Positions 2,189-46,902 of a stretch of DNA of 64,000 nt are shown piece by piece. The notes beneath the pieces are model-generated. The model saw nothing but the letters and a program-made list of their open reading frames with translations, made no database searches and was not told the origin of the DNA. The stretch is from a plasmid, in assembly GCF_053078305.1 (NCBI RefSeq), contig NZ_CP166875.1; one strand, 5' to 3'. The number at the start of each line of letters is the position of its first letter. Position 1 is the first letter of the stretch. The position numbers and the translations under genes were made by a program.

Positions 2189-4469
2189 TCCTGACCTCAT
2201 ACACCGCACGGCCTGGGGAAACCCGCTGTGGAATGCACTGCATAACCTGAACATCATTGGTCTGTGTCTGGCCGGCAGTATCATTACGGCCCTGATATGG
2301 CCACTGGCCCTTCCTGTCTGTCTGCTGTTCACCCTGGTCACCTCCGTGATATTCACGCTGCAACGCTGGCGATGCCCCCTGCGTATGCCCATGACGCTCA
2401 GCCTTGATGACCCCTCCCAGGACAGAAAGGTCAGGCGAAGCCTCTTCAGCTTCTGGCCCACCCTGTTTCAGTATGAAGCAGATGAAACATCCCCCGCACG
2501 GGGGATTTTTTATGTCGGTTACCGCCGTATCAATGATATCGGTCGTGAGCTCTGGCTGAGCATGGATGACCTCACCCGGCATGTCATGTTTTTTGCCACC
2601 ACCGGTGGCGGTAAAACAGAAACCACCTTTGCCTGGCTGCTCAACCCGCTCTGCTGGGGAAGAGGCTTTACCTTTGTTGACGGAAAGGCACAGAACGATA
2701 CCACGAGGACAATCTGGTATCTCTCCCGACGTTTTGGCAGGGAGGATGATATCGAGGTCATCAACTTCATGAACGGCGGAAAATCCCGCAGCGAAATCAT
2801 TCAGAGTGGCGATAAATCCCGCCCACAGTCAAACACCTGGAACCCGTTCGCATTCAGCACCGAAGCCTTCACCGCCGAAACCATGCAGTCCATGCTGCCC
2901 CAGAACGTTCAGGGCGGTGAATGGCAGTCACGGGCGATAGCCATGAACAAGGCACTGGTCTTTGGCACAAAATTCTGGTGCGTCCGGGAAGGTAAAACCA
3001 TGTCCCTGCAGATGTTACGGGAACATATGACGCTGGAAGGGATGGCAAAACTCTATTGCCGTGGCCTTGATGACCAGTGGCCGGAAGAAGCCATCGCACC
3101 ACTGCGAAACTACCTGCAGGATGTCCCGGGATTCGATATGTCACTGGTGAGAACGCCGTCAGCCTGGACTGAGGAGCCCCGTAAACAGCATGCTTATCTC
3201 TCCGGTCAGTTCTCGGAAACGTTCACAACCTTTGCCGAAACCTTCGGGGACGTCTTTGCGGCAGATGCCGGCGACATCGATATTCGCGACAGTATTCACA
3301 GCGACCGCATTCTGATTGTGATGATCCCTGCACTGGACACATCGGCCCATACCACGTCGGCACTCGGTCGTATGTTCGTCACCCAGCAGAGCATGATCCT
3401 CGCCCGTGACCTGGGCTACCGCCTGGAAGGCACAGATGCACAGACCCTGGAAGTCAAAAAATACAAAGGCAGCTTCCCCTATATCTGTATCCTTGACGAA
3501 GTCGGTGCCTACTACACAGACCGCATTGCTGTGGAGGCCACCCAGGTACGTTCACTGGAGTTTTCCCTGATAATGATGGCGCAGGATCAGGAGCGAATTG
3601 AAGGGCAGACCTCCGCCACCAACACCGCCACACTGATGCAGAACGCCGGCACCAAATTCGCCGGACGCATTGTCAGTGACGACAAAACGGCAAGAACGGT
3701 GAAAAATGCCGCCGGTGAAGAGGCACGGGCCAGAATGGGCAGCCTGCAGCGCCACGATGGTGTGATGGGTGAGTCCTGGGTGGACGGTAACCAGATCACC
3801 ATCCAGATGGAAAGCAAAATCGACGTGCAGGATTTGATCAGACTGAATGCCGGTGAGTTCTTTACCGTTTTCCAGGGGGATGTGGTGCCGTCAGCCTCTG
3901 TGTATATTCCGGACAGCGAGAAAAGTTGCGACAGTGATCCGGTGGTCATCAACCGCTATATTTCCGTTGAAGCCCCCCGGCTGGAGCGTCTCCGCCGTCT
4001 CGTCCCCAGGACAGTGCAGCGCAGGCTCCCCACACCGGAGCATGTCAGCAGCATCATCGGTGTACTGACAGCAAAACCATCCCGTAAACGTCGTAAAAAC
4101 CGTACAGAGCCTTACCGTATCATTGATACATTCCAGCGCCGGTTGGCAACAGCGCAGACATCACTGGATCTGCTTCCGCAATATGATACAGATATCGAAT
4201 CCCGGGCAAACGAACTGTGGAAAAAGGCTGTGCACACTATCAATAACACAACCTGGGAAGAACGCCGGGTATGTTATATCACACTGAATCGTCCGGAAGA
4301 GGAACACTCCGGTCCTGAAGATATACCTTCAGTAAAGGCGATTCTGAATACCCTGCTCCCCCTGGAGATACTGTTACCGGTCGCTGAAAATAATAAATCG
4401 CAGACAATAAATAATGATCATCCCCAGAAATCATGTGGAGCACAACCAACAACTGACGAAAAATACTGA
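2169..4469 (+). CDS. trbC: Type IV coupling protein (TrbC-like, VirD4/TraG-type ATPase)
   Basis: N-terminal transmembrane helices, Walker A (ATTGGGKTET) and Walker B-like (ICILDEVG); 766 aa; adjacent to relaxase operon. Confidence 0.6.
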   Translation: MSQHHVNPDLIHRTAWGNPLWNALHNLNIIGLCLAGSIITALIWPLALPVCLLFTLVTSVIFTLQRWRCPLRMPMTLSLDDPSQDRKVRRSLFSFWPTLFQYEADETSPARGIFYVGYRRINDIGRELWLSMDDLTRHVMFFATTGGGKTETTFAWLLNPLCWGRGFTFVDGKAQNDTTRTIWYLSRRFGREDDIEVINFMNGGKSRSEIIQSGDKSRPQSNTWNPFAFSTEAFTAETMQSMLPQNVQGGEWQSRAIAMNKALVFGTKFWCVREGKTMSLQMLREHMTLEGMAKLYCRGLDDQWPEEAIAPLRNYLQDVPGFDMSLVRTPSAWTEEPRKQHAYLSGQFSETFTTFAETFGDVFAADAGDIDIRDSIHSDRILIVMIPALDTSAHTTSALGRMFVTQQSMILARDLGYRLEGTDAQTLEVKKYKGSFPYICILDEVGAYYTDRIAVEATQVRSLEFSLIMMAQDQERIEGQTSATNTATLMQNAGTKFAGRIVSDDKTARTVKNAAGEEARARMGSLQRHDGVMGESWVDGNQITIQMESKIDVQDLIRLNAGEFFTVFQGDVVPSASVYIPDSEKSCDSDPVVINRYISVEAPRLERLRRLVPRTVQRRLPTPEHVSSIIGVLTAKPSRKRRKNRTEPYRIIDTFQRRLATAQTSLDLLPQYDTDIESRANELWKKAVHTINNTTWEERRVCYITLNRPEEEHSGPEDIPSVKAILNTLLPLEILLPVAENNKSQTINNDHPQKSCGAQPTTDEKY

Positions 4470-4689: not shown

Positions 4690-7410
4690 TTACATTCCAG
4701 GTGATGGTGGCTCCCATGTTTTCTCCTGCCGTAACGTATAATTATCATCATGGCTCTCCGATAAACGGGTCTGCTGTCTGATATATTCCCGGTAATACTG
4801 CTCACTGCGTTGACGGTGCAAATCCACGTCCGGACGAGTAATGGTGAAGTGTCCGTTTCCGGTTATTCCCGCTGCATTGTGCCAGGCCACCATTTCTGCA
4901 AACACATCATTAAACTGCTGGTATGAACCTTCCGGCTCAAAACCAAGCTTTCCGTTGCGGCTGAACAGAACTGGCGCAATTAAATCAAGCTTCTCTGCCA
5001 GTTCATTTCGGTCCGTGTGATGGTAGAACACAACCCGATCTCCGTAATCCGTACAGACATTTTTTCCTGTCCGCGTATCCCTGAAATGAACACTTCCATT
5101 TTTCTGAAGACGAGCTTCAAGTTTTGCAACATTATTAAAAAGTGGCGTTCCTCCGGGTTCGCAGAGTACGACACAACGATCAGCATTAGTTGTGCGTCTT
5201 TTATCCTTATTACGCGAGCGACGATCACGATAATCCCAGCCACGTAACTGCGATACTGCAGCCCTGTCTCCCTGAGCCGCCTGTTGTTCCACCCACTGCC
5301 GGTAGGACAAAGGATACCACTTACCCTCCGCAATCAGTGACAACCGCTCTTCCTTCACACTCTCCTTCAGCCTGATCAGCGCCTGCATACGCTGCACTTC
5401 CGCAATATGGTAATGCAGCTTACGCAATTGTGGATCCCGGAACTGCACACGGATATACGCCTTGCGCCGACGGCAGGCAGCATGAATTTCCCGTAACCGT
5501 TCTCCGTAACGTAAGTCGGGTTTACGCCAGTGCTCCTTCCATGCAAGATAACGCGCACGCAAATCTTCCCGCGCAGCTGCACGGGCTTCACGGCGCTCAC
5601 GACGAATCTCAGGATCGCGCCGGAAGCCTGGTTCCACTTCATCACTGGCAGCAAGTTCCGGATTGTAACGACATTCAGGCTTCACCCGTTCGAAAATATC
5701 TGCAGCCGCAATTTCAAATGGCCCGGCCTGAGGCTCGGCACGGGATAACGTCAAATCCGGGTGGATACTGCTGGCCTTCACCGGTGTCAGCTCATGATTA
5801 AACGCATCCACAATCACAAGACCATGATGCTGTTTCTGCAGCATAAGCCCTTTACGCGCAAACATCTCATGACATGCCTGCCAGCTGAAATCCCCGCCAG
5901 CTATCATCTCTTCAATCTGGCTCCTGCACTGAATAAGAGCGTATCCCCACAGACTTTCCTTATCGGAAAACAGTTCACGCTTTATAGCCCCCTGCGGACC
6001 TGTGCCCATCCTCATGCGATACCATTCGTAATCACTGACAGGCTGAGAGCCAATACTGTGTCCCCGGAATCGTTCTCCGGGAACGACCTGAGTAAAAATA
6101 TCCTTCGGTACAGGCTGCCATCCACCATCCAGATCCTGCATATAATCCAGCGTCATTAACGGCCACACACTGTCTGCACGTACTGGTGTCTGTTGTTTAT
6201 CAAATCCATCATGCAGTACCAGATGCCCGTGCTGAATCCCCATCCATAATCCCGCCTCTGCCAGAGTACGGTGTACAGCCAGGCAGCTTTTCAGTTCACC
6301 ATTGCGCGCCATTGCCGGTAAGCGTTCGGCAAAATGACGGCAGGCGTACTGTTTCAGACTCTCCGTTTCTGCCACTTTTTCCGGCCGGATATCAACGTTT
6401 ATGGCTTCCGGATCATAACGACCGGGTGTCCCCACCTGACTGAAAATATCTGTCGGTACAGGCTGATATTCCCCCAGTTTCCGCCCCAGTTTTTCAGCCG
6501 TCCATGACGGTCCGAACGAACTGAGTGCAACACCTTCCCGCGCTCTGTCCCAGCCATCCTTCACCACCAGTTCCCCTTCCTGCATCGTGATATACAGACC
6601 ATCGCTGGCCAGCCGTTTATGCAAAGATAACCAGTCCTGTGCAGGCTCTTCACGCAGCCCGGCAATCGACATCTGAGCAATATATTCCCTGAACGTCTGC
6701 TTTTTCCCGCGTCGCCAGGCATTACGGCGCTCACGTACCAGCGCTGTTTTGCGCACAATACGGTTGCCGGGTGCATGCACAAAGCAGCCATTATCCGGCG
6801 CGAATCCGTGCTTAAGTTCAAGTTCACGACATGCACGGCTGAGTTTTTCCTGGCTCCACGGAAGGCAATTGATATAGCCGGTTTCAGGGTGGACACGATT
6901 CACTGCAACATGTACATGCAGGTTATCCGTGTCTGTATGAACGGCTGCCACATACTGATGTTTTGACAGCTCAAGGGATTTCAGGGTGTGACGCACACAG
7001 TCAAAAAGCTGCTCAGAACGCGGACTTTCGTGCGCAGGCCAGGAGAGAATATAGTGAAAAACAGGATCTGTATCATCTTTGGAAAAATGAGCAAGGTCTG
7101 CTGCTTTCTGCATTTCTTCAGCCGCAGATTCAAGAGACAAACAGTTATGAAAGCAGGTCACACCATAGAAATTCACCCACTGACTGCCGTCTTTCATCAC
7201 ATCAATCAGGGAAACAAATTTTTCATTACGCAGACGTGTTGCATAATCAACAAGACGTCTGAAGCGATTCCGGTGCGGAACCTCACCTTTCACTTCCGTG
7301 TCTGGTCTGAGTTCATCTTCCGGCACATCATCCCGCACTGAGGTGTACGCAATCAGGTCTTCAAAAGAAGACTTTCCGTCGCGTCTTTTTTTCGGAATGA
7401 TGGCATTCAT
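4690..7410 (-). CDS. nikB: MOBP-type relaxase NikB
   Basis: 906 aa; N-terminal relaxase domain with HxDxxxxHxH-type motif (HTDTDNLHVHVAVNRVHPETG); directly downstream of nikA and oriT. Confidence 0.85.
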   Translation of the reverse strand: MNAIIPKKRRDGKSSFEDLIAYTSVRDDVPEDELRPDTEVKGEVPHRNRFRRLVDYATRLRNEKFVSLIDVMKDGSQWVNFYGVTCFHNCLSLESAAEEMQKAADLAHFSKDDTDPVFHYILSWPAHESPRSEQLFDCVRHTLKSLELSKHQYVAAVHTDTDNLHVHVAVNRVHPETGYINCLPWSQEKLSRACRELELKHGFAPDNGCFVHAPGNRIVRKTALVRERRNAWRRGKKQTFREYIAQMSIAGLREEPAQDWLSLHKRLASDGLYITMQEGELVVKDGWDRAREGVALSSFGPSWTAEKLGRKLGEYQPVPTDIFSQVGTPGRYDPEAINVDIRPEKVAETESLKQYACRHFAERLPAMARNGELKSCLAVHRTLAEAGLWMGIQHGHLVLHDGFDKQQTPVRADSVWPLMTLDYMQDLDGGWQPVPKDIFTQVVPGERFRGHSIGSQPVSDYEWYRMRMGTGPQGAIKRELFSDKESLWGYALIQCRSQIEEMIAGGDFSWQACHEMFARKGLMLQKQHHGLVIVDAFNHELTPVKASSIHPDLTLSRAEPQAGPFEIAAADIFERVKPECRYNPELAASDEVEPGFRRDPEIRRERREARAAAREDLRARYLAWKEHWRKPDLRYGERLREIHAACRRRKAYIRVQFRDPQLRKLHYHIAEVQRMQALIRLKESVKEERLSLIAEGKWYPLSYRQWVEQQAAQGDRAAVSQLRGWDYRDRRSRNKDKRRTTNADRCVVLCEPGGTPLFNNVAKLEARLQKNGSVHFRDTRTGKNVCTDYGDRVVFYHHTDRNELAEKLDLIAPVLFSRNGKLGFEPEGSYQQFNDVFAEMVAWHNAAGITGNGHFTITRPDVDLHRQRSEQYYREYIRQQTRLSESHDDNYTLRQEKTWEPPSPGM

Positions 7411-7421
7411 CAGCGATTATC

Positions 7422-7754
7422 TCAGCGTCCCATTAAATCTCTTCGCAGAGTATTAGCGAGTTCTGTAATAGCAACGAGAACCTCTGCATACTCTTTATCT
7501 CCCGTGCGTTTTCCTTCCACAAACAGATGCTTCTGCAGGCGACCAAGACGCATCAGCTCTTTCAAAAACTCTTCGTCAATGCGGGCATTTATCTGTTTTC
7601 CCAGCACAGTTTTTCTTATCAGAGTTGAAACTGTCAGTCCGTTTTTTTCTGCCTTTTCTCTAACAATCTCAGCCTCTTCTGGTGAAAAACGAACAGCAAT
7701 GAGGACATTCTTTTGCCGTTTCTCACTGCCACTTCGGGTTTTCTTCTCACTCAT
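7422..7754 (-). CDS. nikA: Relaxosome accessory protein NikA (ribbon-helix-helix)
   Basis: 110 aa basic RHH-like protein immediately upstream of the relaxase, adjacent to oriT hairpins. Confidence 0.8.
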   Translation of the reverse strand: MSEKKTRSGSEKRQKNVLIAVRFSPEEAEIVREKAEKNGLTVSTLIRKTVLGKQINARIDEEFLKELMRLGRLQKHLFVEGKRTGDKEYAEVLVAITELANTLRRDLMGR

Positions 7755-7759
7755 GGTCT

Positions 7760-7900
7760 GCTCCTTACCGGGGTGTCGGGGCTAAGCCCTGACCAGGTGG
7801 TAATCGTATAGCCGTGCGTGCGCGGTTATACGATTACACATCCTGTCCCGTTTTTCGGTCCATTATAGCCTGTTATTTTTGTGCATCATAGTCTTATGCA
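7760..7900. other. Origin of transfer (oriT) region with two inverted repeats
   Basis: Hairpin ggggctaagccc (about 7779-7790) and inverted repeat taatcgtatagccg...cggttatacgatta (about 7801-7836) just upstream of nikA. Confidence 0.6.
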
Positions 7901-7980
7901 GACGGCAGAGGCAGGGCGCAGCCCTGCCAGGAGTCAGTTTTTGATGATAAAATCAGACTTCAACATGAAACGGAGAGAAA

Positions 7981-8322
7981 GTGCCAATGGCTTCTAAAAA
8001 ATTTTACTCAGATGATGACATCCAGCTGGCAAAAGCTGCTTTATCAGAATTGCCGGACCTCACCGCTCAACGGAAAACATTGCGTGATTTTCTTGATGCC
8101 ATTCGTGATGACATTATTGTCCTGGTAAGGACAAAGGGTTATGCACTGGCAGATGTTCGTGACACGCTCAAAAATGCAGGGTATGAAGTAGGAGAGAAGG
8201 CACTTCGTGACATTATTCGGGAAGCAGAATCGAAAAAACCATCCCGCCGTTCTTCCTCTAAAACAGCACCTAAAAAGACAGATTCAGGCAGGAAAGATGG
8301 CATCGATATGAACAACAATTGA
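7981..8322 (+). CDS. Hypothetical protein with lysine/serine-rich basic tail
   Basis: ORF with upstream purine-rich stretch; no recognised domain. Confidence 0.35.
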   Translation: MPMASKKFYSDDDIQLAKAALSELPDLTAQRKTLRDFLDAIRDDIIVLVRTKGYALADVRDTLKNAGYEVGEKALRDIIREAESKKPSRRSSSKTAPKKTDSGRKDGIDMNNN

Positions 8323-8407
8323 TGTGACAATGTCACATCGTGTTCTGAGATTATGATGATTACAGAAAAAAAAGCCCCGGCATAAATACCAGGGCTTTTC
8401 TGTTTAA

Positions 8408-9259
8408 TCAGACTCGTGGCGGCAATGCACCAGGATAATGCCGTGCAATAATATCATTCAGTTTTTCAACAAGGTCAGAACGCTTAAAGACAATGTGTAC
8501 GGTCCCTTTCTGGTAGCCACGCACCGTAAAATATTCCCCTTCTAACAGCTTACCGACATTGTCGCCGTTCCCGAGAAATTCACCGTACTGCGCCCCGATG
8601 CTGCTCCGGAAGTCAGGAACGTTGCGCCCCTCCAGCAGATAAAACGGACGTACCAGGTCATCCAGTGCCTCCCGTCCGCTGCAGTCCAGCGTCACACGCC
8701 CGTTACTCCAGCGGTACAGCAGGTTTTCAATAATGATTTTCTTACCCAGACGGCAGGGATTATTGGTTCTGTAATCCCATGACAATTTCCGGTAGACATC
8801 AATCAGTCCCTGTTCAAATGTTTGCATCTTACTGGCATTCAGATAGCGAAAAGTTGCCAGTACATTGTCCAGGGTGATTTCAGGACAGGTGTCGCTCATC
8901 AGCTGGCTGTTCCACTCATCACGCTGGCATGAACTCATGAAGGTGTACATGCCAGTATCCGTCATCAGGCGATCCCAGATTTTCCGGTCGGCAAGACGGG
9001 TGATATTCTTTTTTGCTTCTTCCGGTTTATCCATGCATCGAACGGAGTCAGTCACGCAGTCTTCAAACCCGTAGAGAAAAATGTCACCGGAAGCATCGAG
9101 CAGAATCCTGCGCGCTGTCGCCAGGCATTCCATCGCCTGCATGAACAGTGCAATACCTTCGTTACGCTGCGCGATAATGCGGTCGATGGCCACAGACGGA
9201 ATAATATCTGTCGTGCCGGCAGTATTCAGGTCAGCAGTGGGTAAAGTCTGATTCATCAC
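8408..9259 (-). CDS. Leading-region hypothetical protein (DUF4942-like)
   Basis: 283 aa ORF in leading orientation, preceded by repeat A1; family assignment from memory only. Confidence 0.45.
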   Translation of the reverse strand: MMNQTLPTADLNTAGTTDIIPSVAIDRIIAQRNEGIALFMQAMECLATARRILLDASGDIFLYGFEDCVTDSVRCMDKPEEAKKNITRLADRKIWDRLMTDTGMYTFMSSCQRDEWNSQLMSDTCPEITLDNVLATFRYLNASKMQTFEQGLIDVYRKLSWDYRTNNPCRLGKKIIIENLLYRWSNGRVTLDCSGREALDDLVRPFYLLEGRNVPDFRSSIGAQYGEFLGNGDNVGKLLEGEYFTVRGYQKGTVHIVFKRSDLVEKLNDIIARHYPGALPPRV

Positions 9260-9284
9260 ATTGTCTCCTCATCGTCACGACTGC

Positions 9285-9645
9285 CGGGTCAGCCAGGTCA
9301 TTTCCCGGAGGAGCGAAGCTCCTTCTGCCGTCCGGGTCTTCGGGGATTTCCCCGCAGTGGACCTTTCCGATGGGGGCCCGTTTACCGCCTCACGGGACAG
9401 CTGTCCGGGGGCGGACGCAAAATTTTTAGCCGGGTTCATGGCTAAAAATTTTGTGGCCGGTGCATCTCACCCTGGACAGATGGAACGGGAGGGGGTTACG
9501 TCTGCCCCCTGGAAAGTCCACAGCGGGAAACAGGCCGCAGGGGTGGCGGCAGGAGGGAAGACTGCTGCGCCATCAGGCGCAGTTTCCTCACACACCGTCA
9601 GGTGTGCAGGGAGCGCAGGTCACGGCGCGACTGAAGAAAAACGAC
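9285..9645 (-). repeat. Repeat family A copy 1: GC-rich structured element (Frpo/ssi-like single-strand promoter candidate)
   Basis: Shares long near-identical blocks (ccgcagtggacctttccgatggg; cagctgtccgggggcggacgcaaaa; ggaaagtccacagcgggaaacaggccgcag) with copies at 12.7, 28.1 and 33.4 kb. Confidence 0.55.
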
Positions 9646-9719
9646 GGCACAACAATGGCATGTGGTGGTCACTGGCACACCACTCCCGCACAGGTGAAAA
9701 CAGAGAAAACCGCACGACA

Positions 9720-9830
9720 TTTACAACCAAAAAAAAGTGAAATTTCTTCACTTTTTCACGCTTATTTTTCGCGTTGATTTGGTGATTATGATGATAAAAT
9801 AAAGTGAAATTTTTTCACTTTTTCAAAGGT
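9720..9830. promoter_or_regulatory. Tandem palindromic operator-like sites (aaagtgaaa-N-tttcacttt, two copies) upstream of the HTH gene
   Basis: Two near-identical palindromes directly visible about 60 bp apart. Confidence 0.5.
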
Positions 9831-9835
9831 GTTTT

Positions 9836-10087
9836 ATGACCGGCTGGGAACTGCGAATCTGGCGAAAAAGCATGCTCTGGTCACGCGAAAAAGCGGCCAG
9901 AGAATTTGGCGTGACGCAGAGAACATGGCACGCCTGGGAAAATGCGGAACAGGTGGATGTCACCGTCTGGAGGACCACCCAGGCACTTTCAGTCCGTGAC
10001 CTGCTGCCTCACATGCAGGGGATGCGTAAGGCAGATATCATCAGGCGTCTGGAAAATGAACTGGGGGAAACGGCAGGGAATGTGTGA
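9836..10087 (+). CDS. Small HTH DNA-binding regulator
   Basis: 83 aa; helix-turn-helix-like segment (REKAAREFGVTQRTWHAWE); preceded by palindromic operators. Confidence 0.45.
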   Translation: MTGWELRIWRKSMLWSREKAAREFGVTQRTWHAWENAEQVDVTVWRTTQALSVRDLLPHMQGMRKADIIRRLENELGETAGNV

Positions 10088-10117
10088 GCGTGATTCACAG
10101 CCTGGCTGAATGCCAGG

Positions 10118-10387
10118 CTACTGCTCATCAGGAAACAGCTTTTTCAGTTCTTCACCGGAAAGTCCCGTGACCTCCTGAATCCGTTCCGGCGGCCAGCCTA
10201 TATCCCGCAGCCGGCAGGCTATTTCCCGCGCCACTTCAAGAACCCCTTGTTTAAAACCTTCTTTAAAACCTTCTTTAAAACCCTCGTCGAAACCTTTCTG
10301 TATAAGACGTTCTGCAATCGTCATGCTGTTTGCTCTGCTCCTGCTGGCAAAAAAGCCCGGGATTTTGCCGGGCTTTGTGGTTCTCAT
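10118..10387 (-). CDS. Small protein resembling the C-terminal domain of Rpn nucleases, with KEGF tandem repeats
   Basis: C-terminus (ACRLRDIGWPPERIQEVTGLSGEELKKLF) parallels the C-terminus of the adjacent Rpn protein; 12-bp tandem repeats in DNA. Confidence 0.5.
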   Translation of the reverse strand: MRTTKPGKIPGFFASRSRANSMTIAERLIQKGFDEGFKEGFKEGFKQGVLEVAREIACRLRDIGWPPERIQEVTGLSGEELKKLFPDEQ

Positions 10388-11301
10388 CAGTGAGTGATTT
10401 TCTTCAGTTCGTCATCGGAAAGTCCGGTAGCCTGCTTAATCTGCTCCGGCGTCATCCCCATTTTCTGAAGCTGGCACGCAATAGCCAGGGCTTTTTCAAG
10501 CGCTCCTTCCATGCGTCCTTCCATCCTGCCTTCCTGGCGACCTTTTTGCTCAAGACGTTCTGCGATAGTCATCAGTTTATCCTCATGCTGCGGCAGACGC
10601 TCAGCCAGCGCCCGCATAAATTCCGGTGATACAGAGTCCCCTGCGTTAACGATGTAATGAATCAGAACACGCACCTGTTCATCTGAAATTTCCACCATGA
10701 CCTGCGGGAGTTTGTCCAGCAGCTCCATCATGTCACGATGGCGGATATGCTTCATCAGCAGCGTCAGTGCGGCCATCCGGCGATGGTTCATGATTTCATT
10801 GTCATCAACGACAGTGATATCAACCAGCGGAAACGGCTTTGTGTATATTTTAGCCGCAAGAGCCGGATTCTCAAAACAGCCCAGCCAGTTCATGCTGTAC
10901 GGGTACGGGCTGCGCTCACCGTGATAGAACAGCACCGGAATCACCAGTGGCAACGTTTTGTGCTGCTCCAGATGTCTCTGCATCGCCGCCACACTGTAAC
11001 GTAACATGCGAAAAGGCATGTACAGATTTTCGGTGCTCTGGTGCTCGATGAGCGTATAAACATAGCCGTCTTCACCCCCGGTGGTTTTCACGCTCCAGAG
11101 GATATCGCTGGCGTACTGATGCAGGTCCGGCTCTACAAAGGTGGCGGGTTCCAGCTTCAGCGTGGACAGGTCGCACAACTGCCGGTACTCCGCAGGAAGA
11201 TGCAGTTCCAGAAAATCTCTGGCGACGTCGGGATTCGCCAGGAACGACCGGAACGCGGCATCATGCGGCGTGGGCGTTGTGGTGTTTTTCTTCTTACTCA
11301 C
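10387..11301 (-). CDS. Rpn-family recombination-promoting nuclease (YhgA-like PD-(D/E)xK)
   Basis: 304 aa; conserved Rpn N-terminal nuclease region (FLANPDVARDFLELHLP...TLIEHQS) recognised from memory. Confidence 0.7.
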   Translation of the reverse strand: MSKKKNTTTPTPHDAAFRSFLANPDVARDFLELHLPAEYRQLCDLSTLKLEPATFVEPDLHQYASDILWSVKTTGGEDGYVYTLIEHQSTENLYMPFRMLRYSVAAMQRHLEQHKTLPLVIPVLFYHGERSPYPYSMNWLGCFENPALAAKIYTKPFPLVDITVVDDNEIMNHRRMAALTLLMKHIRHRDMMELLDKLPQVMVEISDEQVRVLIHYIVNAGDSVSPEFMRALAERLPQHEDKLMTIAERLEQKGRQEGRMEGRMEGALEKALAIACQLQKMGMTPEQIKQATGLSDDELKKITH

Positions 11302-11762
11302 GGTTCCTCCATCAAATCAGCAGCATCGCAGCAATCATCGCCCAAATCCCCACAACCGAGAGGACAGCAATTGCGTTCAAAGCCATGACAACAATAGCCG
11401 CGTTCTGAGTCACGGCGTATTTCTTCAGCAATCTCTTCTGCGGAAAGGTAATCAAACTCCTCACGGGCCAGTTCCAGGACCAGTAGATGTTGTTCTGTCG
11501 GCAATGTGGCCACAAAATTATCAATAGCAGCACTCAAACGTCGCTGATATAGCTCATAAACAAGACCACAACGGGGCATTAGTTCTTCGGATAATAGTTC
11601 CAGTTTTGAGCGAATTCTGTCAGCGTTGAAAGTGACTTCATCAAAAGACATATGAAAAGCTTTGTCAGTATCAAAACAAGACTTCATTGTTATCTCCAGC
11701 CCTCCCGGGCCCTGAATGAAAGAGAATCTGTTTCCCTTTTCTGTTTTTTGTGGAGACACCAT
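11298..11762 (-). CDS. Hypothetical leading-region protein with Cys-rich C-terminus
   Basis: ORF in leading orientation; no recognised domain; true start may be internal. Confidence 0.35.
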   Translation of the reverse strand: MVSPQKTEKGNRFSFIQGPGGLEITMKSCFDTDKAFHMSFDEVTFNADRIRSKLELLSEELMPRCGLVYELYQRRLSAAIDNFVATLPTEQHLLVLELAREEFDYLSAEEIAEEIRRDSERGYCCHGFERNCCPLGCGDLGDDCCDAADLMEEP

Positions 11763-11863
11763 GCAACACAGACGTCGTGATGTTTTTCATCTTGCTCACG
11801 GTTCCTCCTGGTAAAGTACCTGAACACATCCTGCCACCTGCACAGGCAGACGGCAGGGGTTAA

Positions 11864-12130
11864 TCAGTGACAGACCCGTTCAATTTCAAGCGCGCGGAGC
11901 AGGTGGCCCCATTCGCTGACTTTCATGGCGGGGATACGTACCCGCTTCTGCTCACTGCAGCGTCTGGCGATATGACCGCCCATCGCCAGGACGTCCGGGT
12001 TAATCTCATCCGGTGCCAGTTCCTGGCGTCTGAAGCGGGTATGGCGGTGCAGGGGTTTATTCTCCCGCAGGCACTCTTCACGCAGACGCTTTACATACTC
12101 GGCGGTTGCGAAGATAATTGATGGTCTCAT
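11864..12130 (-). CDS. Hypothetical small leading-region protein
   Basis: Start refined to the internal ATG (MRPSIIF...); no recognised domain. Confidence 0.3.
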   Translation of the reverse strand: MRPSIIFATAEYVKRLREECLRENKPLHRHTRFRRQELAPDEINPDVLAMGGHIARRCSEQKRVRIPAMKVSEWGHLLRALEIERVCH

Positions 12131-12222
12131 GGCATAATCTCCATAGTTAGTGAATGAGATGCCGGACTTCCGTACGGGGAAGCGCCGGCGGAGAGAGGCA
12201 GGGTTTATCGCCCTGCTTTTTT

Positions 12223-12657
12223 TCATTCCGGACAGCGACGCAGTGCCAGCGCGAGCGCTTTCATCTTCCAGCCTTCCGGCGTGCGGTACATCACCTTCCA
12301 GTAGCCGTCGATGAACACATAATGGAAGCGCACCTCTTCAGTGCTTTCCGTGGCGATGGCCTCCCTGAAAGAACGGTACTCACGCGCCTCACTGTCCATC
12401 CGGAAACCACTGTCACGTCCGTAATAAGCCGTCACACCGTCCACCGGGTTCTGAAGCGTATGCCCGGCGGGTTTGTCGCAACGGGGACCGAGGCAACGGA
12501 TATCACCGTGTTCAACCAGGGCTTCGGCCTGCTGACCGGTGGCATAGTGGGTATGCAGGATGCGACCGTTCCAGGTCGGCTCACCGTGCAGGTGGCAGTA
12601 AACGGTACGGAACACCCCGTCGCGGCAAAAAACGGAAATCGTGCTGCTGACTGTCAT
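12223..12657 (-). CDS. Hypothetical leading-region protein (about 144 aa)
   Basis: Start refined to ATG at MTVSSTISVF; lies directly downstream of repeat A2. Confidence 0.4.
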   Translation of the reverse strand: MTVSSTISVFCRDGVFRTVYCHLHGEPTWNGRILHTHYATGQQAEALVEHGDIRCLGPRCDKPAGHTLQNPVDGVTAYYGRDSGFRMDSEAREYRSFREAIATESTEEVRFHYVFIDGYWKVMYRTPEGWKMKALALALRRCPE

Positions 12658-12689
12658 GAAAACGTCTCCTTCTGCTGAATCAGGTCGCC

Positions 12690-13210
12690 GGGCCGACCGA
12701 TTGCTCCCCCGGAGGGGCGAAAGCCCCTTCTGCCGTCCACTTCTTCGGGGTTTCTCCCCGCAGTGGACCTTTCCGATGGGGCAGCGACAGCCACGGCACG
12801 GGGCAGTTGTCCGGGGGCAGACGCAAAAGTTTTTGACGCTTGCGGCAAAAAGTTTTGTGGCTGGTACATCTCCCCCCTGGACGGCTGACACGTGTTGTGG
12901 CCGCTTCAGCCCCCGGAAAGTCCACAGCGGGAAACAGGCCGCAGGGGTGGCGGCGGAAGGGCAGACAACTGCGCCATCAGGCGCAGTTTCCTTACACACC
13001 GTCAGGTGTGCAGGGAGCGCAGGTCACGGCGCGACAGAGGCGGCGCGACCGGAACGGTCGCTGCAAGCCTGGTTTTTCAGACATCGGACCGTAGCGGCAG
13101 CCCGAAACCGCGCCAGCGGGTTCGGCGGAGACTGGCGGGTGCGCCAGCAGCTGCCTGTCGGAGTCGGGCCTGACGACCGGATGCCGCCAGGCAGCCGGGA
13201 GCCGAAGGTG
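12690..13210 (-). repeat. Repeat family A copy 2 (Frpo/ssi-like candidate)
   Basis: Shares conserved blocks with copies A1, A3, A4. Confidence 0.55.
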
Positions 13211-16479: not shown

Positions 16480-16850
16480 CCTTCTCTTACAGAGGGCACC
16501 GGGAGGGCCCCCCTGTGGTGCCCGTTCCCCGCTGCCTGTGGGCTGTTCACCGCGTCCGGTAACGGGTCAGGCCGACCGTGGAATACCGCAGCCGTCGTCT
16601 TTTTGACGGCAAGGTTATGCCGCGAAAGCGGCTTGAAGGGCGTTCATCAGAAAAGGGCGACGGGCTGGCGTACACTGTCACCGGTGCCAGCCGGGAGCGG
16701 TAAAAGCGCCCGTCCCGTGCCCGGCCGGACGCGGGACACTGACCACAGGCAGCGTTTATGCCGCGCCGCGTCAGCCGGCGCAGTAAAAAGAGGAGCACGG
16801 CGACATCCTTTGTCGGAAAAGAAACGGGCGGTTGCCCGCCCGTCTCCGTC
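16480..16850 (-). repeat. Repeat family C copy 1 (about 330 bp GC-rich structured element)
   Basis: Near-identical to 17795-18125. Confidence 0.6.
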
Positions 16851-17794: not shown

Positions 17795-18125
17795 CACAGG
17801 AGCACCGGGAGGGAGCCCCTGTGGCGCCCGTTCCCCGCTGCCTGTGGGCTGTTCACCGCGTCCGGTAACGGGTCAGGCCGACCGTGGAATACCGCAGCCG
17901 TCGTCTGTTTGACGGCAAGGTTATGCCGCGAAAGCGGCTTGAAGGGCGTTCATCAGAAAAGGGCGACGGGCTGGCGTACACTATCACCGACGCCAGCCGG
18001 GAGCGGTAAAAGCGCCCGTCCCGTGCCCGCCGGACGCGGGACACTGACCACAGGCAGCGTTTATGCCGCGCCGCGTCAGCCGGCGCAGTAAAAAGAGGAG
18101 CACGGCGACATCCTTTTCCCCTGAA
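17795..18125 (-). repeat. Repeat family C copy 2
   Basis: Near-identical to 16480-16850. Confidence 0.6.
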
Positions 18126-23373: not shown

Positions 23374-26300
23374 ATGCAGAAGTACAAGAAAAGAATTAGT
23401 ATATTAACAAAAAGTGAAATAAATGAATTATATCAAGTCCCCTCTTTTAATCCTGTTGAAAGGGATGAGTTTTTTTCGCTGGATATCAGCCTTAAAAGAG
23501 AAATTGATAAAATAATAAATATAGAAAGCAGGGTGTATCTGATATTAATAACAGGGTATTTCAGATATAAACCTGTGATTCCTGAATTTACATTAAAAGA
23601 CGTAAAAAGGGATGTGAAATATATTATCCAGACATATTATAAAAACGAAAGTACTAATCTCAATTTAAACATACCTAAAAGTACAAAGTACCGCCTTGTT
23701 AAACGAATGCTTTCTACTCTAGGATTTGAACAACTCACCCCATCTATAAAAAATGAGTTAAGTGAACGTCTGAATGATGTTGCTACTATATGTATGGAAC
23801 CAAAATATATTTTTGATGAATTACTTGCTTTTTTAGGACAGCGGCGTATAGCTCTTCCTGGATACAGTACTGTCCAGAACCTCGTTTCAGATGCTTTAAA
23901 CTTTGAAAGGAAAAGGACAATTAATATTTTGTCAAAGAGAATTTATCCTGCCACTGCACAAAAGATTACATCCATCATCCATGATGATGGAATATTAAAT
24001 TCCATCAGGGGATATAATTATAGCACGAGAGACTTCTCAGCATCAGAAATAGAAAATGAATTAAGAACTCACAATGTGATAAGTAGTATTTACTATGAAA
24101 TAAAAGATATAATTAATTCATTAGGTATATCCCAGGGAAACATGGAGTACTATGCAACTATCGTAAAACACAGTACAACATTCAGACTTAAGCGACACCC
24201 TAAATGGCAAGGAATACTTTATTTGTGCTGCTACTTGTACTTCAGATACAGAGAGATAAATGATAAAATAATCACAGCCTTCAGATATTTAGTAAAAAAA
24301 CATAAAGACGCTTCAGTTTTGTTTGCAAAAGCTCGGGCAACAGAGGAAATAGATCTAATAAATAAAAAGCTTAAGTTTGCGAGTAAAATATTTAACTTCT
24401 TCGTTGATAGTAACATTGAAGACAGCATCCCTTTTGGATATGTTCGTGAAAAGGTTTTTTCACTTATATCGAAAGATGATATGCATCTTGTGAGTGAATT
24501 TTTTGACAAAAATAAAATCGATGTAATTGAATATCAATGGCAGTATATTGACAGCCATCACCTTAAGATCGCCAATTCAATCCGAAAGCTTTTTCTGGCT
24601 ATAGATATAGTATATGACAACGAGAAGTCTGTTATTGGCCAGCAAATTACTGCTGCCAAGGATGATCTCAGAGGAAAAGGAAAGCTGGATGCTAAGGATC
24701 TGAGGGTAATTCATCCATCCGAGAAAAATTACATTGTAAAAGAAGGAGAAATTAACACTCAACGATTCGAATTTCATATGTACAGCAGGGTATCTAACCA
24801 TCTGGAAAACGGTGTCTTTTATGCTGCGGAGAGTGAACAAAACAAGAGACTGGAAGATGATCTCATAGAACGAAGTTACTGGCATAAGAATAAATCGATT
24901 TTGATAGAGAAAACAGGCCTTGAACGACTTATCACACCAATAACGCAGACTCTTAATGAGCTGGAGAATACCTTTAGCGATAAACTGGCTCGTATAACCA
25001 TTGGAATAAACTCAGATGCTAATGAGTTTGTGAAAAAACAACCACACTCCAACAGATTACAGTGGAGTCTGGCCAGTAAAAAATGGAAGACCAGCATCGA
25101 TAATCCGATTTACAATCAGATAAAAAATATCGGAATAGTTGACGTAATGAAGTATGTAAACAATGAGACGAATTTTTTGTCTGTGTTTAATGCCATATCA
25201 TCCAGGAAAAATAATCTTGAAGCTGACTATAATGACCTTCTTGCCTGTATATTTGGTAATGGCGCAAATTATGGTGTTCACAGAATGGCATCTGCATCAG
25301 ACCGTAGTATTGGAATACTACGTGATGTGAATGACAAATTCATTCGTCCAGAAACAACAGGAATGGCCAACACAGTAATATCTGATGCAATTGCAAATCT
25401 TTCTGTATATAAATACTGGACGATAAATGAAGATTCTCCATTTGGAAGTGTTGATGGGCAGAAGCACACTTGCAGAATAAATACATTTAAAGCCCGTTAT
25501 TCTGCCAAGTATTTCAGAAAGGGGAAAGGGGTTTCTGCGATGACACTGGTATCTAATCATGTGCCATTATCAACTGTGGTAATTTCTCCAAATGAATATG
25601 AAGGTCATTTTGCATTTGACTTGTTATATAACAACACCAGTGAAATACAACCAAAGTCATTAGCGACTGACAATCATGGTATAAACAACGTTAATTTTGC
25701 GATTCTTGACATTTTTGGCTATCAGTTTTCACCACGTTATGCAAAATTCAAGAAAATATTTAATGAATTATTTGATGTTATACTGGAGAGTGATAAACTC
25801 ATTATAAAACTTAAAAAACAATTTAACTTTAAGCTCATTGAACATGAATGGGAAAACATCCAACATATTATTTGTTCTTTAAGCAGAAAAACAACCATTC
25901 AAAGTACGGTTGTTAAGAAGTTATCTAATACAAAGCGTAGCAACAAGACATTAGCAGCACTTCGGGAGTATGACCGAGTTATAAAATGCATATATGTCCT
26001 GGATTATGCTGACAATAAAACCTTAAGGCAATTTGTGCAACAAGCACTGAACAGAGGTGAAGCTTATCATCAACTAAGAAGAGCAATAGCATCAGTAAAT
26101 GGAAATCAATTTCGCGGTGGTAATGACTACCAAATAGATCAATGGAACGACTGTGCGAGGTTAATAGCTAATTGTGTAATCTATTATAATTCAGCAATAT
26201 TATCCAGGCTGGTCGAGAAATTTGAAAAAGAAAATAATAAAAAAGCGATAGATGTTCTGGCTAACTTATCCCCAGTAGCATGGAGACACATTCTCCTTGG

Positions 26301-26412
26301 AGGGAATTATTCTTTTGAAGATCAAGTTGCGATCACAAATTTGGACAGTCTTTTGGAGGGAGTAGACCCACTAAGTGATATCGGAGATATTGAGTCCGAA
26401 TATGACGGTTAA
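23374..26412 (+). CDS. tnpA: Tn3-family DDE transposase
   Basis: 1012 aa, size and organisation typical of Tn3-family TnpA; AT-rich codon usage unlike the backbone. Confidence 0.8.
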   Translation: MQKYKKRISILTKSEINELYQVPSFNPVERDEFFSLDISLKREIDKIINIESRVYLILITGYFRYKPVIPEFTLKDVKRDVKYIIQTYYKNESTNLNLNIPKSTKYRLVKRMLSTLGFEQLTPSIKNELSERLNDVATICMEPKYIFDELLAFLGQRRIALPGYSTVQNLVSDALNFERKRTINILSKRIYPATAQKITSIIHDDGILNSIRGYNYSTRDFSASEIENELRTHNVISSIYYEIKDIINSLGISQGNMEYYATIVKHSTTFRLKRHPKWQGILYLCCYLYFRYREINDKIITAFRYLVKKHKDASVLFAKARATEEIDLINKKLKFASKIFNFFVDSNIEDSIPFGYVREKVFSLISKDDMHLVSEFFDKNKIDVIEYQWQYIDSHHLKIANSIRKLFLAIDIVYDNEKSVIGQQITAAKDDLRGKGKLDAKDLRVIHPSEKNYIVKEGEINTQRFEFHMYSRVSNHLENGVFYAAESEQNKRLEDDLIERSYWHKNKSILIEKTGLERLITPITQTLNELENTFSDKLARITIGINSDANEFVKKQPHSNRLQWSLASKKWKTSIDNPIYNQIKNIGIVDVMKYVNNETNFLSVFNAISSRKNNLEADYNDLLACIFGNGANYGVHRMASASDRSIGILRDVNDKFIRPETTGMANTVISDAIANLSVYKYWTINEDSPFGSVDGQKHTCRINTFKARYSAKYFRKGKGVSAMTLVSNHVPLSTVVISPNEYEGHFAFDLLYNNTSEIQPKSLATDNHGINNVNFAILDIFGYQFSPRYAKFKKIFNELFDVILESDKLIIKLKKQFNFKLIEHEWENIQHIICSLSRKTTIQSTVVKKLSNTKRSNKTLAALREYDRVIKCIYVLDYADNKTLRQFVQQALNRGEAYHQLRRAIASVNGNQFRGGNDYQIDQWNDCARLIANCVIYYNSAILSRLVEKFEKENNKKAIDVLANLSPVAWRHILLGGNYSFEDQVAITNLDSLLEGVDPLSDIGDIESEYDG

Positions 26413-43863: not shown

Positions 43864-46800
43864 ATGCAGAAGTACAAGAAAAGAATTAGTATATTAACAA
43901 AAAGTGAAATAAATGAATTATATCAAGTCCCCTCTTTTAATCCTGTTGAAAGGGATGAGTTTTTTTCGCTGGATATCAGCCTTAAAAGAGAAATTGATAA
44001 AATAATAAATATAGAAAGCAGGGTGTATCTGATATTAATAACAGGGTATTTCAGATATAAACCTGTGATTCCTGAATTTACATTAAAAGACGTAAAAAGG
44101 GATGTGAAATATATTATCCAGACATATTATAAAAACGAAAGTACTAATCTCAATTTAAACATACCTAAAAGTACAAAGTACCGCCTTGTTAAACGAATGC
44201 TTTCTACTCTAGGATTTGAACAACTCACCCCATCTATAAAAAATGAGTTAAGTGAACGTCTGAATGATGTTGCTACTATATGTATGGAACCAAAATATAT
44301 TTTTGATGAATTACTTGCTTTTTTAGGACAGCGGCGTATAGCTCTTCCTGGATACAGTACTGTCCAGAACCTCGTTTCAGATGCTTTAAACTTTGAAAGG
44401 AAAAGGACAATTAATATTTTGTCAAAGAGAATTTATCCTGCCACTGCACAAAAGATTACATCCATCATCCATGATGATGGAATATTAAATTCCATCAGGG
44501 GATATAATTATAGCACGAGAGACTTCTCAGCATCAGAAATAGAAAATGAATTAAGAACTCACAATGTGATAAGTAGTATTTACTATGAAATAAAAGATAT
44601 AATTAATTCATTAGGTATATCCCAGGGAAACATGGAGTACTATGCAACTATCGTAAAACACAGTACAACATTCAGACTTAAGCGACACCCTAAATGGCAA
44701 GGAATACTTTATTTGTGCTGCTACTTGTACTTCAGATACAGAGAGATAAATGATAAAATAATCACAGCCTTCAGATATTTAGTAAAAAAACATAAAGACG
44801 CTTCAGTTTTGTTTGCAAAAGCTCGGGCAACAGAGGAAATAGATCTAATAAATAAAAAGCTTAAGTTTGCGAGTAAAATATTTAACTTCTTCGTTGATAG
44901 TAACATTGAAGACAGCATCCCTTTTGGATATGTTCGTGAAAAGGTTTTTTCACTTATATCGAAAGATGATATGCATCTTGTGAGTGAATTTTTTGACAAA
45001 AATAAAATCGATGTAATTGAATATCAATGGCAGTATATTGACAGCCATCACCTTAAGATCGCCAATTCAATCCGAAAGCTTTTTCTGGCTATAGATATAG
45101 TATATGACAACGAGAAGTCTGTTATTGGCCAGCAAATTACTGCTGCCAAGGATGATCTCAGAGGAAAAGGAAAGCTGGATGCTAAGGATCTGAGGGTAAT
45201 TCATCCATCCGAGAAAAATTACATTGTAAAAGAAGGAGAAATTAACACTCAACGATTCGAATTTCATATGTACAGCAGGGTATCTAACCATCTGGAAAAC
45301 GGTGTCTTTTATGCTGCGGAGAGTGAACAAAACAAGAGACTGGAAGATGATCTCATAGAACGAAGTTACTGGCATAAGAATAAATCGATTTTGATAGAGA
45401 AAACAGGCCTTGAACGACTTATCACACCAATAACGCAGACTCTTAATGAGCTGGAGAATACCTTTAGCGATAAACTGGCTCGTATAACCATTGGAATAAA
45501 CTCAGATGCTAATGAGTTTGTGAAAAAACAACCACACTCCAACAGATTACAGTGGAGTCTGGCCAGTAAAAAATGGAAGACCAGCATCGATAATCCGATT
45601 TACAATCAGATAAAAAATATCGGAATAGTTGACGTAATGAAGTATGTAAACAATGAGACGAATTTTTTGTCTGTGTTTAATGCCATATCATCCAGGAAAA
45701 ATAATCTTGAAGCTGACTATAATGACCTTCTTGCCTGTATATTTGGTAATGGCGCAAATTATGGTGTTCACAGAATGGCATCTGCATCAGACCGTAGTAT
45801 TGGAATACTACGTGATGTGAATGACAAATTCATTCGTCCAGAAACAACAGGAATGGCCAACACAGTAATATCTGATGCAATTGCAAATCTTTCTGTATAT
45901 AAATACTGGACGATAAATGAAGATTCTCCATTTGGAAGTGTTGATGGGCAGAAGCACACTTGCAGAATAAATACATTTAAAGCCCGTTATTCTGCCAAGT
46001 ATTTCAGAAAGGGGAAAGGGGTTTCTGCGATGACACTGGTATCTAATCATGTGCCATTATCAACTGTGGTAATTTCTCCAAATGAATATGAAGGTCATTT
46101 TGCATTTGACTTGTTATATAACAACACCAGTGAAATACAACCAAAGTCATTAGCGACTGACAATCATGGTATAAACAACGTTAATTTTGCGATTCTTGAC
46201 ATTTTTGGCTATCAGTTTTCACCACGTTATGCAAAATTCAAGAAAATATTTAATGAATTATTTGATGTTATACTGGAGAGTGATAAACTCATTATAAAAC
46301 TTAAAAAACAATTTAACTTTAAGCTCATTGAACATGAATGGGAAAACATCCAACATATTATTTGTTCTTTAAGCAGAAAAACAACCATTCAAAGTACGGT
46401 TGTTAAGAAGTTATCTAATACAAAGCGTAGCAACAAGACATTAGCAGCACTTCGGGAGTATGACCGAGTTATAAAATGCATATATGTCCTGGATTATGCT
46501 GACAATAAAACCTTAAGGCAATTTGTGCAACAAGCACTGAACAGAGGTGAAGCTTATCATCAACTAAGAAGAGCAATAGCATCAGTAAATGGAAATCAAT
46601 TTCGCGGTGGTAATGACTACCAAATAGATCAATGGAACGACTGTGCGAGGTTAATAGCTAATTGTGTAATCTATTATAATTCAGCAATATTATCCAGGCT
46701 GGTCGAGAAATTTGAAAAAGAAAATAATAAAAAAGCGATAGATGTTCTGGCTAACTTATCCCCAGTAGCATGGAGACACATTCTCCTTGGAGGGAATTAT

Positions 46801-46902
46801 TCTTTTGAAGATCAAGTTGCGATCACAAATTTGGACAGTCTTTTGGAGGGAGTAGACCCACTAAGTGATATCGGAGATATTGAGTCCGAATATGACGGTT
46901 AA
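43864..46902 (+). CDS. tnpA: Tn3-family DDE transposase (copy 2)
   Basis: Identical to 23374-26412. Confidence 0.8.
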   Translation: MQKYKKRISILTKSEINELYQVPSFNPVERDEFFSLDISLKREIDKIINIESRVYLILITGYFRYKPVIPEFTLKDVKRDVKYIIQTYYKNESTNLNLNIPKSTKYRLVKRMLSTLGFEQLTPSIKNELSERLNDVATICMEPKYIFDELLAFLGQRRIALPGYSTVQNLVSDALNFERKRTINILSKRIYPATAQKITSIIHDDGILNSIRGYNYSTRDFSASEIENELRTHNVISSIYYEIKDIINSLGISQGNMEYYATIVKHSTTFRLKRHPKWQGILYLCCYLYFRYREINDKIITAFRYLVKKHKDASVLFAKARATEEIDLINKKLKFASKIFNFFVDSNIEDSIPFGYVREKVFSLISKDDMHLVSEFFDKNKIDVIEYQWQYIDSHHLKIANSIRKLFLAIDIVYDNEKSVIGQQITAAKDDLRGKGKLDAKDLRVIHPSEKNYIVKEGEINTQRFEFHMYSRVSNHLENGVFYAAESEQNKRLEDDLIERSYWHKNKSILIEKTGLERLITPITQTLNELENTFSDKLARITIGINSDANEFVKKQPHSNRLQWSLASKKWKTSIDNPIYNQIKNIGIVDVMKYVNNETNFLSVFNAISSRKNNLEADYNDLLACIFGNGANYGVHRMASASDRSIGILRDVNDKFIRPETTGMANTVISDAIANLSVYKYWTINEDSPFGSVDGQKHTCRINTFKARYSAKYFRKGKGVSAMTLVSNHVPLSTVVISPNEYEGHFAFDLLYNNTSEIQPKSLATDNHGINNVNFAILDIFGYQFSPRYAKFKKIFNELFDVILESDKLIIKLKKQFNFKLIEHEWENIQHIICSLSRKTTIQSTVVKKLSNTKRSNKTLAALREYDRVIKCIYVLDYADNKTLRQFVQQALNRGEAYHQLRRAIASVNGNQFRGGNDYQIDQWNDCARLIANCVIYYNSAILSRLVEKFEKENNKKAIDVLANLSPVAWRHILLGGNYSFEDQVAITNLDSLLEGVDPLSDIGDIESEYDG

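Follow-up and report, generated by a model that had tools for sequence, protein, structure and literature searches.

Among regulators of solved structure, the best match in both sequence and fold to the small plasmid protein considered here is Aca2 (phage ZF40, Oceanimonas), a match confined to the N-terminal helix-turn-helix (HTH) domain. Aca2 is a dimeric autorepressor whose promoter carries two similar inverted repeats, the core promoter being blocked through one of them (PMC6765145), and YdiL is a stand-alone protein with an inverted repeat over its -10 element (PMC8434428). The 83-aa regulator likewise has two related inverted repeats and is proposed to act as a dimeric autorepressor, and like YdiL it stands alone. 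It is smaller than Aca2 and YdiL (83 versus 116-125 aa), and the alpha/beta dimerisation domain of Aca2 is absent, only two helices following the HTH; none of 30 family members matches Pfam Aca2_YdiL (PF08965) at E<=0.001. Aca proteins are defined by a position downstream of acr in the operon that they repress, whereas no ORF lies here between the operators and the ATG. The operator core also differs, being AAGTG-N9-CACTT here and TTCG-N6/8-CGAA for Aca2 (PMC6765145). The 83-aa regulator would work like Aca2 and YdiL, but it falls outside that family.

Regulators of the ArdK/KorA type, found on the IncW plasmid R388 and the IncN plasmid pKM101, repress establishment genes through operator copies at several leading-region promoters. 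The regulator described here is also plasmid-encoded and located in the establishment or leading region, but it belongs to another protein family and has no operator copies beyond its own promoter at <=1 mismatch. The C proteins of restriction-modification systems are similar in being small XRE-type HTH proteins (about 80 aa) whose autoregulation relies on paired palindromes upstream of their own genes. However, C-boxes are adjacent (about 35 bp in total) and a nuclease gene follows the C gene, whereas the sites here are 67 bp apart with no nuclease partner, and the neighbours are opposite-strand genes (DUF4942, Rpn-like, hypothetical) rather than a linked restriction endonuclease gene; fold similarity to the C protein 3clc is weak (Foldseek probability 0.38). 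Cro/CI-like repressors and antitoxin repressors (HipB, HigA, MqsA) share the five-helix XRE fold and a palindromic operator over the promoter, but the gene here is monocistronic, with neither a toxin partner nor a lysis-lysogeny context.

The regulator family has been catalogued before, as ygeA of R64 and as family 22 of Samuel et al. 2024, with which the 83-aa protein is identified by position, size and strand. The 2333 members of family 22 have a median position of 2 from oriT on strand -1; the family is labelled 'HTH transcriptional regulator; aca6' (PMC11541004, Suppl. Table 1), and is flanked by an RpnE-like family at position 3 and an RpnB family at position 4 (PMC11541004). No description of the operators or function of family 22 or ygeA was found in the searchable literature. 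The ygeA of the F plasmid is another gene, a leading gene driven by Frpo1, and has only the name in common (PMC9849209).

Genomic setting and the encoded protein

The window (the whole stretch of DNA analysed, 64,000 nt) includes the oriT-proximal part of the leading region of an I-complex (IncK2/Z-like) plasmid. Positions 9400-10400 have 100% identity to the E. coli plasmid pDW54_2 (IncK2/Z, MOBP, MPF_I) and 90-99% identity to about 2000 further PLSDB plasmids. The features of the region are:

4690-7410, minus strand: nikB
7422-7754, minus strand: nikA
about 7.8-8.0 kb: oriT
7981-8322, plus strand: yggA-like gene, 113 aa, beside oriT
8408-9259, minus strand: DUF4942 gene, in the oriT-proximal operon
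9342-9634, transferred (plus) strand: class-1 ssi/Frpo-type single-strand promoter hairpin, 100 bp left of Op1
9734-9754: predicted distal operator Op1, AAAGTGAA-ATTTC-TTCACTTT, an exact match to AAAGTGAANNNNNTTCACTTT
9792-9800, plus strand: predicted extended -10 element TGaTAAAAT, read from sequence
9801-9821: predicted proximal operator Op2, AAAGTGAA-ATTTT-TTCACTTT, equivalently AAAGTGAAA-TTT-TTTCACTTT, an exact match to AAAGTGAANNNNNTTCACTTT
9826-9830, plus strand: ribosome-binding site AAAGG, read from sequence and invariant in A1 and A3
9836-10087, plus strand: XRE-type HTH gene, 83 aa (R64-style name ygeA; pESBL Hp21), from the ORF list
10099-10119: hairpin with an 8-bp stem, AGCCTGGC-tgaat-GCCAGGCT, read from sequence and folded
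10118-10387, minus strand: 89-aa Rpn-C-terminal-like gene, matching the Rpn C-terminal domain only (TIGR01784 positions 216-273, HTH_Rpn_C)
10387-11301, minus strand: Rpn-family nuclease gene, followed by the separate 89-aa gene
12748-13038: second ssi/Frpo copy, 79-94% identical to the copy at 9342-9634

In an annotated relative, 19 leading-region genes (DUF4942, Rpn, ardA, psiA, psiB, ParB-like, ssb and others) lie on the minus strand, and the only leading-region genes on the plus strand are the HTH gene and the yggA-like gene. The original prediction was thus correct that the regulator is transcribed away from oriT, unlike nearly all of its neighbours. In ColIb-P9 and F, leading genes are known to use the transferred strand as template (a point repeated in PMC11541004 and PMC12672017), and since the leading genes here are on the minus strand, the plus strand of the window is therefore the transferred strand. 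With regard to the other plus-strand gene, deletion of the yggA-like homologue orf35 of pCTX-M3 derepresses nikA/nikB and increases mobilisation more than 100-fold (PMC6112013); no HTH operator is present near the yggA-like gene.

Downstream, the HTH gene and the 89-aa gene converge, and the 30-nt gap between their stop codons holds the hairpin at 10099-10119, a possible bidirectional transcript end; its fold is statistically not unusual (z=-1.5) and a T-run is absent. The Rpn nuclease and the 89-aa gene presumably resemble the reported arrangement of an Rpn toxin with a small C-terminal antitoxin, here split into two genes. No known Rfam RNA families were detected within 7700-13200.

The assignment of an 83-aa HTH gene, as first proposed, is borne out by the ORF itself, by a match to Pfam HTH_31 (E=1e-4, residues 3-40), and by the RefSeq annotation in pDW54_2 ('helix-turn-helix transcriptional regulator', WP_000148286.1). 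Across the family, 19 of 30 members match HTH_31 and HTH_3 (E<=0.001). The protein also matches phrog_6962, a phage family of unknown function (E=1.8e-13), and PADLOC and NCBIfam searches of the regulator gave nothing significant. The AlphaFold model, built on a 30-sequence alignment (pLDDT 90.5), is a compact all-helical XRE-type fold with five helices (residues 3-12, 17-24, 28-35, 42-60 and 65-76) in which the helix 2-turn-helix 3 unit is present, with about residues 28-35 (TQRTWHAW) as the predicted recognition helix. The top Foldseek matches are all XRE-type, every one with an E-value above 0.1, and the first of them is Aca2 (probability 0.99, TM 0.57-0.60; target-normalised TM 0.41-0.44). 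When the family profile was compared with the PDB, residues 1-52 matched 7ezy_A (E=1.9e-6) and 8w35_A and 7vjo_B (about 6e-5), and the single sequence matched the Aca2 HTH domain at E=7.8e-4.

Paired palindromes on the regulator's promoter

Op1 and Op2 are exact 21-bp palindromes of the form AAAGTGAA-N5-TTCACTTT upstream of the HTH gene, and Op2 can be extended inwards to a perfect 9+3+9 palindrome. The two palindromes of the original prediction are confirmed at these positions, where chance would supply 0.02 matches to AAAGTGAANNNNNTTCACTTT per shuffled window at <=2 mismatches. The predicted extended -10 element directly adjoins Op2, and because of this the transcription start, predicted at about 9806-9808, falls inside the operator. 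The 3′ end of Op2 is 14 nt ahead of the ATG, and the centre of Op1 is about 63 bp upstream of the predicted start. The -35 region of the HTH promoter is poor, with no conserved element found, which is why a consensus promoter scan misses the promoter at 9792-9800. The -10 hexamer (TAAAAT/TAGAAT) is kept in A1 and A3, and in the variant LC567059 the TG of the extended -10 is lost.

Within the I-complex, the operators are conserved beyond their surroundings. Among eight I-complex variants, 29 of 32 half-site columns are invariant, compared with 31 of 85 columns elsewhere in the intergenic region 9700-9835 (Fisher p=6.6e-8). The central spacer bases vary among the same eight variants, which fits bases that are free of protein contact. 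A Salmonella variant with 84% aa identity retains both operators, the 67-bp spacing, a TGnTA(A/G)AAT element and the ribosome-binding site, and unalignable sequence has taken the place of the inter-operator DNA and of that upstream of Op1.

More distant relatives were sought among 1.84 billion representatives, giving 79 proteins at E<=0.001, and the genomic context of several members was examined. Homologues with 30-57% identity, on MOBP plasmids and phage-like contigs, have one to three cognate palindromes on their own promoters. On other Enterobacterales MOBP plasmids (L008-L011, L013 from Edwardsiella and L014 from Citrobacter) the homologues are 46-57% identical, again lie in the leading region on the strand opposite to their neighbours, and have AAGTGCA-N5-TGCACTT upstream in one to three copies, at intervals of 54-57 bp. 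In the plasmid homologues 15-27 nt separate the end of the proximal 19-nt operator core from the ATG, and a TAAAAT-like hexamer usually adjoins this operator in MOBP plasmids (L009, L010, L014). On phage-like IMG/VR contigs (32-46% identity), the corresponding sites are AAAGTGTCA-N3-TGACACTTT or AAGGCGCA-N5-TGCGCTTT beside a TGnTAAAAT-like -10 element. Two apparent relatives were set aside. The one on pOXA-48/IncL shows only generic XRE similarity (41% over 44 aa), shares its operon with a restriction-endonuclease-like gene and belongs to another family, and a Klebsiella IncFIA locus (L015) was dropped as a family member on the same ground of a generic XRE match.

A 21-bp frame, AAAG-N13-CTTT, is constant throughout the family, and the inner operator bases change by protein clade (GTGAA, GTGCA, GTGTC, GTGAC and GCGCA) alongside the predicted recognition helices (TQRTWHAWEN, SLRTYKDYEN, SLATYKRYEK, SVRTYKRYEK and SRRTYQGYEK). 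These comparisons argue strongly that the palindromes are operators of the 83-aa HTH protein, and from the conserved, clade-matched palindromes we infer that the protein most likely binds them sequence-specifically as a dimer.

The genes that surround the regulator are not conserved across homologous loci. On one IMG/VR contig (L141), a homologue with its own palindromic operator occupies 3001-3219 between a terS-like and a terL-like gene, on the strand opposite to them, a location that suggests that regulator and operator move as a self-contained cassette. The 3′ ends of the HTH gene and its convergent neighbour share 1-4 nt at several loci (L014, 6001-6258/6255-6557; L017, 4609-4854/4851-5177; L141, 3001-3219/3216-4025), and the transcripts of the two genes must therefore overlap or collide.

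Our preferred reading, to which we would assign a probability of roughly 0.7, is that the gene encodes a small XRE-type HTH autorepressor that acts on two operators at its own promoter in a circuit apparently self-contained on the plasmid. The protein, related to the DNA-binding domain of Aca2/YdiL, would bind as a dimer to the two 21-bp palindromes, and occupation of Op2, which abuts the extended -10 element and would cover the start, would exclude RNA polymerase and result in negative autoregulation. Op1, 67 bp upstream, would serve as an auxiliary site, probably by binding cooperatively or by hindering upstream promoter contacts. Neither the 67-bp operator spacing here nor that of 54-57 bp on other plasmids corresponds to whole helical turns, and simple looping is therefore not obviously favoured; in principle, binding at Op1, centred near -63, could activate instead of repress. 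The proposal of an autoregulated repressor is supported by the constancy of the half-sites, by the Salmonella variant, and by the palindromes that homologues carry on their own promoters.

The template of the HTH gene is the non-transferred strand, and for this reason the gene is expected to be expressed only after the complementary strand has been made. It would be silent until complementary-strand synthesis in the recipient and would then be expressed continuously, at a self-limited level, in established cells. The original prediction placed the action of the regulator after the formation of double-stranded DNA, and this timing is sound, since it follows from the strand alone.

Possible roles beyond the regulator's own promoter

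It is unlikely that autoregulation is a housekeeping loop for a protein whose real targets lie off the plasmid, be they host genes, defence systems or rival elements, or that the protein is an Aca-like partner of an anti-defence gene. The nearest solved relatives are Aca2 proteins, a few family members were tagged 'aca6' by Samuel et al., and the cassette recurs on its own, inserted on the opposite strand, in unrelated settings, among them the terS-like/terL-like position noted above. The module is also kept in 1335 of 5426 complete E. coli genomes despite laboratory neutrality: the pESBL orthologue Hp21, recognised as such by synteny and position, size and strand, scored non-essential (1.00) for both maintenance and transfer in TnSeq (PMC4288162, Table 2). 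Against an Aca-like partnership, no acr-like ORF occurs between the operators and the ATG, and the neighbours vary across loci. As for chromosomal targets, BLAST of the operator region against complete E. coli genomes gave 31 chromosomal places and, among the matches listed, a 26-nt chance-level match (E=3); no chromosomal operator was found at BLAST sensitivity, a search too insensitive to exclude host sites. The exact palindrome gave only chance-like matches in unrelated taxa among the matches listed from a 100k-species collection, and this test, too, is weak.

A local role on the plasmid is similarly doubtful. The ssi/Frpo element at 9342-9634, assigned to its class by analogy with PMC12672017, is predicted to drive the oriT-proximal DUF4942 operon, and the DNA fold of 9270-9840 has z=-9.1. 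The operators could form a bidirectional switch together with a leftward promoter, active on duplex DNA, that reads into the DUF4942 operon, or they could insulate oriT-nikAB from read-through. A candidate leftward promoter (-35 GTGAAA at 9818-9813 and -10 TATCAT at 9796-9791, minus strand, 9/12 matches) lies within Op2 and the inter-operator DNA, and its hexamers are retained in the Salmonella variant; a leftward transcript would pass through Op1 and the ssi element, with Op1 at about +30 to +50 as a possible roadblock. For insulation, bound protein could be combined with convergent transcription, as the 3′ overlaps with the convergent neighbour at several loci suggest. However, shuffled sequences give 0.7 such promoter matches against the one seen, the conserved TGAT of the rightward promoter, read on the complementary strand, accounts for the leftward -10, and no equivalent is recognisable by eye in L009-L011; the candidate is not conserved outside I-complex plasmids.

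A further point in favour of a local switch comes from Edwardsiella, where a perfect orphan operator, AAGTGCAATATTTGCACTT, lies at 11874-11892 of L013 (31817-31835 of CP084513.1). It neighbours a second ssi copy and precedes a DGQHR-domain gene, and no HTH gene follows it; 0.01 such sites are expected per 71-kb plasmid. The flanks of this orphan resemble the operator array of L011, and it is read for that reason as a remnant of a lost second cassette or HTH promoter, which weighs against its use as a switch. As it is not a chance site, targets beyond the regulator's own promoter exist, or existed, in at least one lineage.

Improbable as it stands is the idea that the regulator and its promoter form a module of the duplex state, placed back-to-back with the ssi/Frpo hairpin and tuning the duration of expression of the first leading operon, or else that the targets are promoters of the host or of rival elements. 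After entry and complementary-strand synthesis, a burst of divergent transcription before the repressor builds up, or the repressor bound later, might act on the adjacent hairpin-forming DNA, and the routes could include supercoiling-driven extrusion, a roadblock, or insulation of oriT-nikAB.

The original prediction had also suggested that the regulator may control leading-region expression, in effect as a global ArdK-like repressor (as in IncW and IncN plasmids) that closes the leading-region operons once the plasmid is double-stranded, and it named beforehand a search for the palindrome elsewhere on the plasmid among its tests. That search gave no further copies at <=1 mismatch in either the 64-kb window or the complete related plasmid pDW54_2 (87.6 kb), and it is on these two sequences that the statement for the whole plasmid rests. 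In pDW54_2 there are two exact sites, none at one or three mismatches, one at two and three at four, and the window gives the same counts; the 4-mismatch sites are all within coding regions. Nor, apart from the Edwardsiella orphan, were operators found elsewhere in the flanks of seven homologous loci, where they occur only at the regulator's own promoter. The single 2-mismatch site, AAAGAGAATCTGTTTCCCTTT at 11719-11739, is intergenic and upstream of the operon for a hypothetical protein and Rpn, where 0.02 are expected, and could be taken in favour of global control. It lacks, however, the GTG/CAC core that is present in every family operator, no promoter was detected there, and it is probably a chance match, or else a very weak site.

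Expression from duplex DNA only, by virtue of strand, is compatible with a global repressor and is stated for opposite-strand families in PMC11541004. On the other side, the second ssi copy at 12748-13038 has no operator, and the shut-off of leading genes is explained by single-strand promoters losing their structure once the duplex forms (PMC12672017, PMC9849209, bioRxiv 10.64898/2026.01.09.698686), a route that needs no repressor. The pESBL orthologue, moreover, is neutral in TnSeq (PMC4288162). Leading-region control is thus unsupported and a global repressor very improbable: the sequence gives no sign that the HTH protein controls the neighbouring early genes. The result narrows the earlier idea to a self-regulated gene that is not demonstrably a leading-region regulator.

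It is scarcely credible that the palindromes serve not as operators but as structural hairpins in DNA or RNA or as weak bidirectional terminators. Each is preceded by an A-run and followed by a T-run, small hairpins appear in the single-strand fold, and symmetry is kept while the inner bases change among clades. Yet the stems are AT-rich with only two G:C pairs, and there are uncompensated asymmetric changes (GTGAA/GTGTA in both operators of L004 and TGCCC in two copies of L011). The outer AAAG/CTTT sequence is itself invariant throughout the family, which goes beyond what pairing would demand, and each locus has one sequence type that tracks the protein clade and a fixed position relative to the -10 element. 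The reading as an antitoxin, or as a repressor that partners a toxic neighbouring gene (the convergent Rpn nuclease, for instance), is hardly tenable either, for although the 83-aa protein has weak HipB/MqsA/HigA-like similarity and is convergent with Rpn both here and in a Providencia plasmid, the HTH gene is co-transcribed with no neighbour, Rpn is missing from the L009-L014 contexts, and the pESBL orthologue tolerates transposon insertions (PMC4288162). Gene context is the ground for rejecting the toxin-antitoxin and C-protein readings alike.

Retention of the module and features of the source plasmid

With negative autoregulation as the preferred reading, the protein is an ordinary XRE-type negative autoregulator that is very widespread, clearly under selection, and unusually oriented within the leading region. 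Besides its presence in the E. coli genomes counted above, the promoter-operator module occurs in about 2000 PLSDB plasmids. Self-regulation is presumably not the whole function of a gene retained in over 2000 plasmids. A local bidirectional or insulating role beside the ssi hairpin, or targets off the plasmid, are possible, though little supported. The I-complex plasmids (IncI1, IncK, IncB/O and IncZ) are major carriers of ESBL and AmpC resistance genes, and their leading region is now viewed as an anti-defence 'first-strike' island driven by single-strand promoters. The HTH gene is among the very few conserved leading-region genes that are unable to join this first-strike burst. The AAAG-N13-CTTT operator, the predicted promoter and the clade variants make its function directly testable, and the clade-specific variants offer a small orthogonal set of repressor-operator pairs.

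Some other features of the source plasmid may be recorded. The window is colinear with pDW54_2 only to about 24 kb, and its 30-42 kb segment looks IncF-like; no PLSDB record covers it, and the source plasmid looks like a mosaic or a cointegrate. Direct repeats of about 320 nt (16496-16811 and 17802-18116), 97-99% identical and 1.3 kb apart, appear to be internal to the large ParB-like leading-region gene or to lie at its start, as judged by offset from the pDW54_2 annotation. Two ORFs of equal length, each of 1012 aa, are found on the plus strand at 23374-26412 and 43864-46902, 20.49 kb apart; they probably represent a Tn3-family transposase present twice or a large duplication.
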